IMG/VR virus record: IMGVR_UViG_2554235189_000003
Strand: one strand, 5' to 3'
Length of the DNA stretch: 5,733 nt
Source: a virus
Taxonomy: Duplodnaviria; Heunggongvirae; Uroviricota; Caudoviricetes
Part shown: piece by piece, positions 3,031 through 4,473 of the stretch
Numbering within the stretch: position 1 is the first letter of the stretch
How the letters are laid out: every line of letters begins with the position of its first letter
The notes under the pieces: model-generated
Database searches by the model: none
What the model was told of the DNA's origin: nothing
The model's input: the letters and a program-made list of their open reading frames with translations, nothing else
Translations under genes and position numbers: made by a program

Positions 3031-4473
3031 CGGAAACCGGTGGTGAAAATCGCATCTTCTGCCGGCGCTTCGGCACAGTCAATAACCTCTTTTCATAAGG
3101 AAAAGTCAGCAATGAATACTGGTGAACAGATTAAAAGTTTTGAAAACAAGCGTGCGGCGCTGGCAGCCTCCCTTGAGGGGATCATGAACAAAGCCGCAGA
3201 GGAAGGCCGCACACTGGATGTGGAAGAGGAAGAGCACTACGACAACACCGCAGCGGAAATCCGTCAGGTGGATGCGCACCTGAAGCGTCTGCGTGAACTG
3301 GAAACCAGTAAGGCCGCCACGGCACAGCCGGTGAAACAGGCCGGTAACGGGAATGTGGCCACGGTGGCTTCAGCGCCGGTGATCCGTGTTGAGCAGAAAC
3401 TGGAGAAGGGGATTGGTTTCGCCCGCTTTGCCAAATCACTGGCCGCGGCTAAAGGTGTCCGCTCTGAAGCCCTGGAAGTGGCCCGTCGTCAGTATCCGGA
3501 TGACAGCCGTCTGCATCATGTCCTGAAATCGGCGGTGGGGGCAGGGACCACCACGGACCCACAGTGGGCAGGCAGCCTGTCTGAATATCAGGAATATGCG
3601 CAGGACTTTATTGATTACCTGCGTCCGCAGACCATTATCGGGCGATTTGGTCAGGGCGGGATCCCTGCACTTCGTCAGGTGCCGTTCAATATCCGCGTGC
3701 ATGCCCAGGTGTCCGGCGGTGCTGCCGGCTGGGTGGGGGAGGGTAAGGCCAGACCCCTGACGAAGTTTGATTTTGAGTCCATCACCTTCAGTCATGCGAA
3801 GGTGTCGGCCATTGCGGTACTGACGGAAGAGCTGATCCGTTTTTCCAGTCCGGCAGCTGATGCGCTGGTCCGTAATGCGCTGGCAGAAGCGGTGGTGGCG
3901 CGTCTGGACACAGACTTTGTGGACCCGAAAAAAGCTGCAGTGGCAGATGTCTCCCCGGCGTCCATCACTCATGATGTGAAGGGCACGGCATCAACCGGTA
4001 ACCCGGATGCGGATGCCGAGGCCGCGTTTGGCCAGTTTGTGACGGCAAATCTGCAGCCCACCGGTGCGGTCTGGCTGATGTCCAGCACGAATGCCCTGGC
4101 GCTGTCCATGCGTAAAAATGCGCTGGGGCAGAAGGAATATCCGGACATGACCCTGCTGGGCGGGACCTTCCAGGGGCTGCCGGTGATTGTCTCCCAGTAT
4201 GTGGGTGACCAGCTGGTACTGGTGAATGCGCCGGATATTTATCTGGCTGATGACGGCGGTGTGGCGGTGGATATGTCCCGTGAAGCGTCACTGGAGATGC
4301 AGTCTGAACCGACCAGCGACAGCAGCACACCGTCACCGGTGGAGCTGGTCTCCATGTTTCAGACCGGCAGCGTGGCCATCCGTGCGGAGCGCTGGATCAA
4401 CTGGCGTCGTCGCCGTACCGCGGCAGTGGCGGTGATCACCGGTGTGAACTACGGAACTGCGTCCGGCGGCTGA
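2536..4473 (+). CDS. Fused prohead protease - delta/scaffold segment - HK97-fold major capsid protein (single 645-aa ORF)
   Basis: N-terminal about 155 aa resemble the HK97 prohead serine protease family, with candidate catalytic His in W-Q-H-D-H-S (H55/H57, nt 2698-2706) and Ser in R-G-L-S-V-G-F (S110, nt 2863-2865). aa 193-265 are a charged, heptad-like helical segment (EQIKSFENKRAALAASLEGIMNKAAEEG...LKRLRELETSKAA) typical of a capsid delta domain. The C-terminal about 375 aa end in the HK97-type tail ...SMFQTGSVAIRAERWINWRRRRTAAVAVITGV. GTG start at 2536 with AGGAGG at 2525-2530 (5-nt spacer). One frame, no internal stop. Confidence 0.92.
   Translation: MTLKRACSLLTVKSFSEDERVITGIASTPSPDRDGDILEPEGAEFGSTIPFLWQHDHSRPVGQCTVRRVREGLEITAMLVKPEPGMPSQMAARLDEAWAAIKTGLVRGLSVGFRPHEYTYLDGGGLHFLRWELMEVSAVTVPANAECTIQTIKSFDRPFSAASGNRKPVVKIASSAGASAQSITSFHKEKSAMNTGEQIKSFENKRAALAASLEGIMNKAAEEGRTLDVEEEEHYDNTAAEIRQVDAHLKRLRELETSKAATAQPVKQAGNGNVATVASAPVIRVEQKLEKGIGFARFAKSLAAAKGVRSEALEVARRQYPDDSRLHHVLKSAVGAGTTTDPQWAGSLSEYQEYAQDFIDYLRPQTIIGRFGQGGIPALRQVPFNIRVHAQVSGGAAGWVGEGKARPLTKFDFESITFSHAKVSAIAVLTEELIRFSSPAADALVRNALAEAVVARLDTDFVDPKKAAVADVSPASITHDVKGTASTGNPDADAEAAFGQFVTANLQPTGAVWLMSSTNALALSMRKNALGQKEYPDMTLLGGTFQGLPVIVSQYVGDQLVLVNAPDIYLADDGGVAVDMSREASLEMQSEPTSDSSTPSPVELVSMFQTGSVAIRAERWINWRRRRTAAVAVITGVNYGTASGG
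3112..3330 (+). other. Coiled-coil delta/scaffolding-like segment; begins at internal in-frame ATG 3112, which has its own Shine-Dalgarno
   Basis: AAGGAAAA at 3097-3104 lies 10 nt (counting from the AGGA core, 3098-3101) before in-frame ATG 3112 (M193). Downstream sequence is Ala/Glu/Lys/Leu-rich with helical periodicity. Confidence 0.55.
3340..4473 (+). other. HK97-fold major capsid protein domain of the fusion ORF (approximate start)
   Basis: C-terminal about 375 aa with the characteristic HK97-family C-terminus; start boundary approximate. Confidence 0.75.

Follow-up and report, generated by a model that had tools for sequence, protein, structure and literature searches.

A likely internal translation start within the protease-capsid fusion gene of a lambdoid Escherichia coli prophage

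We analyzed a stretch of 5,733 nucleotides (nt) of viral DNA (IMG/VR record IMGVR_UViG_2554235189_000003), called the window below. It represents the head-gene region of an E. coli prophage that is lambdoid and long-tailed. The element in question is its protease-capsid fusion open reading frame (ORF) at 2536-4473 (645 amino acids (aa), GTG start, 69.2 kDa), which lies on the plus strand, as do its parts described below. Public records (RefSeq and GenBank) carry this ORF as a single coding sequence (CDS) under the names 'phage major capsid protein', 'phage prohead protease' or 'major head protein/prohead protease'. Our analysis indicates that it is quite probably a nested two-product gene with a functional internal start. 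A sequence-only reading of the same DNA had proposed two products from one frame, and the comparative evidence supports that proposal through the presence of the start site in 37/37 clusters of fused homologs, nucleotide-level selection and the starts of split genes. Both candidate initiation sites are present in the window. The internal one is, judging from aligned fused relatives, under nucleotide-level purifying selection, and it corresponds in the homologs compared to the site that starts the capsid gene where protease and capsid genes are separate.

Internal start site in the window

The internal Shine-Dalgarno (SD) sequence TAAGGAAAA is located at 3096-3104, with its core AAGGA at 3097-3101 and the AGGA at 3098-3101. 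The internal start codon is the ATG at 3112-3114, which is in-frame codon 193 ((3112-2536)/3 = 192) and encodes M193. By direct reading of the sequence, AAGGAAAA occupies 3097-3104 and the spacer from AGGA to ATG 3112 is 10 nt long (3102-3111), which confirms the coordinates given in the sequence-only reading. M193 had also been placed where a coiled-coil segment begins. This agrees with the AlphaFold2 model, in which M193 lies at the boundary of the linker and the helical domain and a helix at 195-222 follows the unstructured aa 141-193.

The proposed nested gene at 3112-4473 would encode a protease-less capsid precursor of 453 aa and 48.4 kDa. Precursors of about 70 and 49 kDa had been estimated beforehand, close to the computed masses of 69.2 and 48.4 kDa. 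The predicted nested product holds the whole capsid protein (TIGR01554, 80.5 bits), and it aligns to TIGR01554, a profile built from stand-alone capsid proteins of the HK97 family, with residue 9 as its first matched residue, opposite profile position 3.

Several points weigh against a functional start at this site. The internal SD is of moderate strength, its spacing of 10 nt after AGGA is longish, and the SD of the upstream start is stronger. The duplex of the internal SD with the 3' end of 16S rRNA was calculated at -6.2 kcal/mol, which ranks 84 among 605 in-frame positions, and at eight other internal ATG/GTG codons in the window ORF the SD matches or surpasses this one. The abundance of Lys, Glu and Gly in the linker favors purine runs, and among relatives N194, E197 and I199-E203 are also conserved as protein, so that conservation of the Met alone is ambiguous. 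Taken on the window sequence alone, the site does not stand above chance, and single-sequence evidence is insufficient for the claim. Because the single-sequence SD score was not significant, we relied on the comparison with relatives.

An out-of-frame TAA is present at 3096-3098 inside the internal SD (caTAAGGA-N10-ATG). A programmed frameshift onto this TAA, giving a protease-only product, was considered and rejected, as the site has no canonical slippery heptamer and relatives beyond the E. coli clade do not keep the string. No Rfam family match was found at the junction.

Conservation of the junction in fused homologs

A total of 285 loci were gathered from species-representative genomes, viral contigs, metagenomes and phage records. 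The fused set consists of 170 distinct proteins, which form 37 clusters when grouped at 80% identity. Identity to the window lies between 100% and 34%, and the set spans Enterobacterales, Pseudomonas phage PAJU2, and alpha- and beta-proteobacterial prophages. The junction test was anchored on the conserved E197; AGGA, GGAG, GAGG or AAGG at -17 to -5 was taken as the SD core, and the chance expectation was obtained by running this test elsewhere along these ORFs.

An in-frame start codon lies 3-7 codons upstream of E197 in each of the 170 distinct fused homologs, and all of them except one sequence (L186) carry the SD core at -17 to -5. At the level of clusters, the start codon together with the SD core was present in 37/37, as compared to ∼1.1 expected; the start codon alone would be expected in 9.1 clusters. 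In an earlier set of cluster representatives the SD core was found in 33/33 (3.6 expected). The sequence-only reading had held that an ATG and SD not conserved in homologous fusions would speak against it, and the opposite was found.

The codon at the start position is ATG in 29 clusters, GTG in six and TTG in two. In none of the 37 clusters is it a codon for Ile, Thr or Lys, CTG, or another Val/Leu codon. A column scan of the whole alignment detected the junction start with its SD in 36/37 clusters, and the junction is the sole internal column that reaches at least this level; the next best internal column reached 13/34. Other internal Met starts (M217, M580 and M588) were examined as candidates and rejected, since conserved residues such as D-G-G account for their SD-like strings, which occur in no more than 13/34 clusters. 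In relatives at ∼75% identity (alignment A1), M193 and N194 are invariant directly after the most variable part of the protein, which is the linker in both alignments A1 and A2.

Selection on the nucleotide sequence

The purine motif ahead of the start is encoded by differing residues (K-E, K-G, Q-G, T-G, P-K-E-G, R-K-G and Q-E-V) in differing codon registers. Where a Gly codon falls within the six codons ahead of the start it is GGA in 25/28 cases, as compared to 6.8% of the Gly codons in the remainder of these ORFs. Only purines occur at positions -11 to -9. The GGA bias, the register shifts and the restriction of substitutions to start codons therefore point to selection on nucleotides, and by this measure conservation at the junction acts on the nucleotide sequence and not on the protein only.

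The mRNA around the internal start is A-rich and weakly folded. The stretch at 3082-3141 has a GC content of 0.30 vs. 0.59 for the ORF, and the GC minimum of 0.283 is reached at 3090-3149. The 60 nt around the internal start have a minimum free energy of -6.9 kcal/mol as compared to an ORF mean of -18.6, and 1.5% of the windows of the ORF are as open. Across the fused homologs, the junction falls within the most open 10% of windows in 29/37 clusters.

The same conservation could be explained by a constraint on the protein only, if the Met and the preceding K-G or K-E(-G) were needed as residues, for example as a protease cleavage site or a helical N-cap, and the SD likeness were a by-product. 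The conserved N194, E197 and I199-E203 mentioned above speak for such a constraint, and so does the P-K-E-G peptide, which is kept in the high-GC clade. HK97 gp5 is cleaved after a Lys, which also counts in its favor. On the other side, the GGA/GAGG string is retained while the residues and registers that encode it vary between clades, Gly codon usage there is extremely skewed, and the Met is replaced by GTG-Val or TTG-Leu only. The same string is the real ribosome-binding site of separate capsid genes, and a cleavage site could coexist with a start site. Codon bias and register shifts thus make a purely protein-level constraint insufficient, and we regard this explanation as improbable.

Split-gene relatives and the history of the fusion

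In at least six split lineages, the separate capsid gene starts at a Met aligned with M193 and carries an SD in the same place. These split genes were found in Snodgrassella prophages (L029 and L033), in three viral contigs (L282, L283 and L284), in Moraxella phage Mcat7 and in Burkholderia phage FUBS1. The position of the protease stop codon differs among them. It precedes the SD in L284, falls in the SD-ATG interval in L282 (AGGAGTTAACGAAATG), comes just past the capsid ATG in L283 (ATGCCTAA) and overlaps the capsid ATG in Mcat7 (ATGA). In FUBS1 (L286 ∼2083-2101) the junction reads caaTAAGGA-N10-ATG, and its TAA is the in-frame stop codon of the protease, whereas in the window it reads caTAAGGA-N10-ATG with the TAA out of frame. 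Since FUBS1 and the window share TAAGGA-N10-ATG and differ in the frame of the TAA, a single frame shift can separate the fused and split states. From these comparisons, the only difference between the fused and split forms is that the protease frame of the fused form reads through a constant capsid start region.

A neighbor-joining tree was built on the capsid part of the proteins. It contains a deep clade of 26 clusters that is wholly fused, from the window to ∼43% identity, and a second clade that mixes fused and split forms; the outgroup taxa have split genes. The ancestral state therefore appears to be split genes, with fusions that seem to have arisen or reverted more than once.

This history also raises the explanation that the SD and ATG are an evolutionary relic of a once-separate capsid gene and that the 645-aa fusion is the sole product. 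The apparent split ancestry and the exact coincidence of the site with the old capsid start are what such a relic would look like. But the site persists in the deep, wholly fused clade of 26 clusters, in which the linker has otherwise diverged beyond recognition, and since it was kept through this long fused history it is not a leftover of a recent fusion. The GGA bias (25/28 vs. 6.8%) and the start-codon-only substitutions also point to ongoing selection, and the mRNA is still unusually open at the site. A relic is hence an unlikely account of the junction, on a par with the protein-level constraint. Even less credible is a pause site, at which an SD-like sequence slows elongation for co-translational folding of the protease with no initiation: its location exactly at the domain boundary inside a disordered linker would suit a pause, but an ATG, GTG or TTG at a fixed distance, the open mRNA and the match to the capsid start of split genes are left unexplained, and later re-analyses of ribosome profiling have reportedly called SD-induced pausing largely into question.

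A similar junction was also found in Microbacterium cluster EE phages, which have GAGAGGA and an ATG at M166 directly after the protease domain, kept in nine sequences of at least 80% identity; gene 5 of Microbacterium phage Anseraureola (L288 4275-4304) is an example. This likeness hints that the arrangement could be general.

Other arrangements were seen among the gathered loci and database entries. In L034 (2830-4700), from a Parasphingorhabdus metagenome-assembled genome, the order is reversed: a capsid ORF that lacks the N-terminal helical domain comes first, and the protease ORF that follows carries a long helical tail at its C-terminus. Here the same protein families seem to be set out as a protease-scaffold arrangement. 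In an Arsenophonus endosymbiont (L022, 3067-4900) the homologous fusion gene is in four reading-frame pieces and is probably a decaying prophage gene. Two database entries, P0002 (1079 aa) and P0003 (784 aa), have the fusion protein joined to TerL or portal domains; these joins are most likely frameshift or assembly artefacts in single contigs.

Domain organization of the fusion protein

The S78 prohead protease domain is located at 2677-2991 (aa 48-152). Its match to the Peptidase S78 family (Pfam PF04586) scored 34.1 bits with a cutoff of 21; the stricter equivalog TIGR01543 scored 45.7, under its cutoff of 59. H55 and S110 are invariant in alignments A1 and A2 and are candidate catalytic residues. 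The variable linker at 3004-3111 (∼aa 157-192) is predicted to be disordered, and its 3' end holds the putative internal ribosome-binding site.

Two long helices, aa 195-222 and 229-261, are encoded at 3118-3318 and were modeled by AlphaFold2 with a predicted local distance difference test (pLDDT) score of ∼72-76. By the model they are the counterpart of the HK97 delta (scaffolding) domain. As in HK97-type systems, a helical domain of ∼100 aa was found ahead of the capsid fold and there is no separate scaffold gene.

The HK97-fold major capsid protein core at 3691-4440 (aa 386-635) matched Pfam PF05065 with 55.7 bits vs. a cutoff of 24.2. On the fusion protein, TIGR01554 matched aa 201-584 with a score of 79 vs. 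a cutoff of 27.5. A sequence search of the PDB gave a weak match alone, to capsid protein 9d9w (E = 0.003). The AlphaFold2 run on alignment A1 had a mean pLDDT of 41.6 and its capsid part was unusable; the model was used for the protease, linker and helix boundaries only, where pLDDT was 56-81 for aa 1-140 (protease) and <50, with no secondary structure, for aa 141-193.

Proposed expression strategy and product ratio

We infer initiation at 3112, the product ratio, co-assembly and the processing steps, which would proceed as follows. Ribosomes starting at GTG 2536 would make the 645-aa protease-linker-scaffolding-capsid fusion. Other ribosomes would bind TAAGGA at 3096-3101 in the A-rich, unfolded mRNA and start at ATG 3112 in the same frame, giving the 453-aa capsid precursor with its N-terminal helical scaffolding domain and no protease. 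The two products would share the scaffolding and capsid parts and could co-assemble into a procapsid, and the few full-length subunits would bring the protease inside as a covalent passenger. The protease would then cut away the scaffolding domains and itself. The protease:capsid ratio would be set by the relative strength of the two initiation sites.

The SD of the full-length ORF is AGGAGG at 2525-2530, 5 nt ahead of GTG 2536, with a duplex energy of -10.3 kcal/mol. The full-length ORF of relatives has a GGAGG-type SD and an ATG start; GTG is the start in the E. coli clade, and ATG in nearly all relatives. The weaker GTG 2536 start would yield less fusion relative to the product of the internal ATG. 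We estimated the ratio with a crude Salis-type model, which adds up terms for SD pairing, spacing (as a penalty), the start codon and mRNA unfolding. The model predicted the internal site to be stronger by ∼6-fold in the window, and favored it in 29/34 clusters with a median of ∼27-fold, but it is rough, rests on uncertain upstream start calls for distant loci and takes no account of ribosomes that arrive by elongation from upstream. Ribosomes elongating from GTG 2536 pass the internal site and could interfere with initiation there; like the limits of the model, this belongs on the negative side of the balance drawn up above. An excess of capsid precursor over fusion is thus weakly indicated by the model. 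The earlier expectation of little fusion and much capsid protein fared accordingly: it is in line with the ∼6-fold estimate for the internal site, and at odds with the stronger SD of the fusion itself.

A short product could also be made from a separate transcript with its own internal promoter, as for UL26.5 of HSV-1 (herpes simplex virus 1), in place of internal ribosome entry on the late mRNA; apart from this precedent the junction region is AT-rich, but no sigma-70-like promoter was found at 2300-4700 of the window, a single antiterminated transcript serves the late genes of lambdoid phages, and a conserved SD would be needed in either case, which makes this source of the short product very improbable.

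Comparison with known protease-assembly gene arrangements

Nested in-frame genes for a protease and an assembly protein are established for lambda C/Nu3 and HSV-1 UL26/UL26.5, and the nested products gp17/gp17.5 of the archaeal virus HFTV1 were shown by ribosome profiling and mass spectrometry. The lambda C/Nu3 genes, and also Mu I/Z, are like the window gene in having an N-terminal head maturation protease and an internal in-frame start that gives the C-terminal assembly part. As in the model proposed here for the window, C/Nu3 has its own internal SD, and the protease enters the procapsid by way of the C-terminal part that both products share. The differences are in the protease family, which is S49-type in lambda and S78 in the window, and in the nature of the nested product. 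In lambda this is a scaffold only and the capsid protein gpE has a separate gene, whereas in the window it would be the capsid protein with a built-in scaffolding domain.

Measured against nested genes of this kind, the window has the N-terminal protease (PF04586) followed by a helical domain and PF05065/TIGR01554, and it has, at the level of sequence, an internal in-frame initiation site at the domain boundary. Its predicted nested product is not a scaffold distinct from the major capsid protein. Since this product contains the whole capsid protein, we consider the window gene a variant of the lambda C/Nu3-type genes and not a member. HSV-1 UL26/UL26.5 and HFTV1 likewise have a protease ORF with an assembly protein nested in frame, which is the more abundant product there, whereas an excess is only model-predicted here. 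Their nested product is a scaffold only, and HSV-1 uses a separate promoter. The HFTV1 site has no recognizable SD, whereas the conserved SD is the main evidence in the window.

The HK97 gp4/gp5 pair belongs to the same protease (PF04586) and capsid (PF05065/TIGR01554) families as the window gene, and there, too, the capsid protein carries its own scaffolding at the N-terminus and a separate scaffold gene is lacking. The HK97 proteins are encoded by two separate genes, whereas in the window the protease frame reads into the capsid gene and the tether is covalent. The HK97 protease is recruited through a C-terminal docking tail. Mcat7, FUBS1 and the Snodgrassella prophages share with the window a homologous protease and capsid protein, the same gene order and a capsid start at the aligned Met; they differ in that a stop codon ends the protease frame beside the capsid start.

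Protease-capsid fusions annotated elsewhere have the same fused architecture as the window, and all of them are annotated or described as a single protein. PAJU2 and the cluster EE phages resemble the window in having an SD and an ATG at the junction. The NCBIfam family NF045541, 'prohead protease/major capsid protein fusion protein', gave 48.3 bits for the window protein, below its cutoff of 525; it has the same architecture as the window fusion and is of a different lineage. The tripartite capsid gene of Gifsy-2 joins an N-terminal ClpP-like protease to a central domain and the capsid protein. The window protease is of the S78 family and not ClpP-like, and its likeness to Gifsy-2 is architectural only. 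A 'fusion' in a preprint on cyclic oligonucleotide-based antiphage signaling systems (CBASS) was set aside: there the term concerns AGS-C domains and a protease-scaffold protein and not a protease-capsid case. In the literature searched there was no report of an internal start yielding the capsid protein in such fusions; an earlier mention in papers on Gifsy-2 or on the HK97 protease is possible.

Implications

If the ORF is nested as proposed, what is annotated as 'major capsid protein' or 'prohead protease' in a very common E. coli prophage family is two genes in one, and the main capsid building block is absent from every annotation, including those of phages converting for Shiga toxin (Stx) types Stx1a, Stx2a and Stx2c. 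The nested start would explain how a fusion phage avoids a protease on every capsid subunit; a T=7 head has ∼415 of them. The strengths of the two initiation sites would provide a simple genetic handle on protease copy number. The nested-gene logic of lambda, Mu, the herpesviruses and the archaeal virus would be extended to the capsid protein itself, and the interspersed fused and split relatives form a natural series in which the targeting of maturation proteases into procapsids can be studied.

We also lean, if only slightly, toward a broader proposal from these comparisons: that all S78 protease-capsid 'fusion' genes of Proteobacteria, and probably of Actinobacteria, are two-product nested genes. 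A stop codon moved in and out of frame around a fixed capsid start would repeatedly toggle them between split and fused states, swapping a non-covalent docking tail for a covalent tether. In thousands of prophages, Stx-converting ones among them, the main capsid precursor would then be the unannotated 453-aa product.

Gene order in the window

DNA similar to the window was found in 1,252 of the 5,426 complete E. coli genomes. Prophages of O145 strains and Stx1a-, Stx2a- and Stx2c-converting phages have 98.9% identity to it. The annotated head module consists of TerS, TerL, the fusion, a 73-aa ORF and portal, and is without a separate scaffold gene. The terS gene is located at 251-814 and terL at 811-2472, with its stop codon at 2470-2472. 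The ATGA at 811-814 is an overlap of the terS stop and the terL start, which is the usual arrangement for translational coupling.

Downstream of the fusion ORF, the 73-aa ORF at 4518-4739 (phrog_829, function unknown) overlaps the portal start by 55 nt. The 5' part of the portal gene is at 4685-5733 and the gene runs past the end of the window. In close relatives (L001 8285-10869 and L002 8285-10707), the portal gene is 'frameshifted' in RefSeq and entered as two CDSs in LC567837. A true frameshift, a pseudogene or an annotation problem that recurs could each account for this, and its position is beyond the window end.

A terminator-like hairpin, GAACCGC-TCCG-GCGGTTT followed by a T-run, is found at 2497-2524, after the stop codon of terL and ahead of the fusion gene's SD. 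This places it mid-way in the expected single late operon, where it may attenuate transcription or be read through under Q antitermination.

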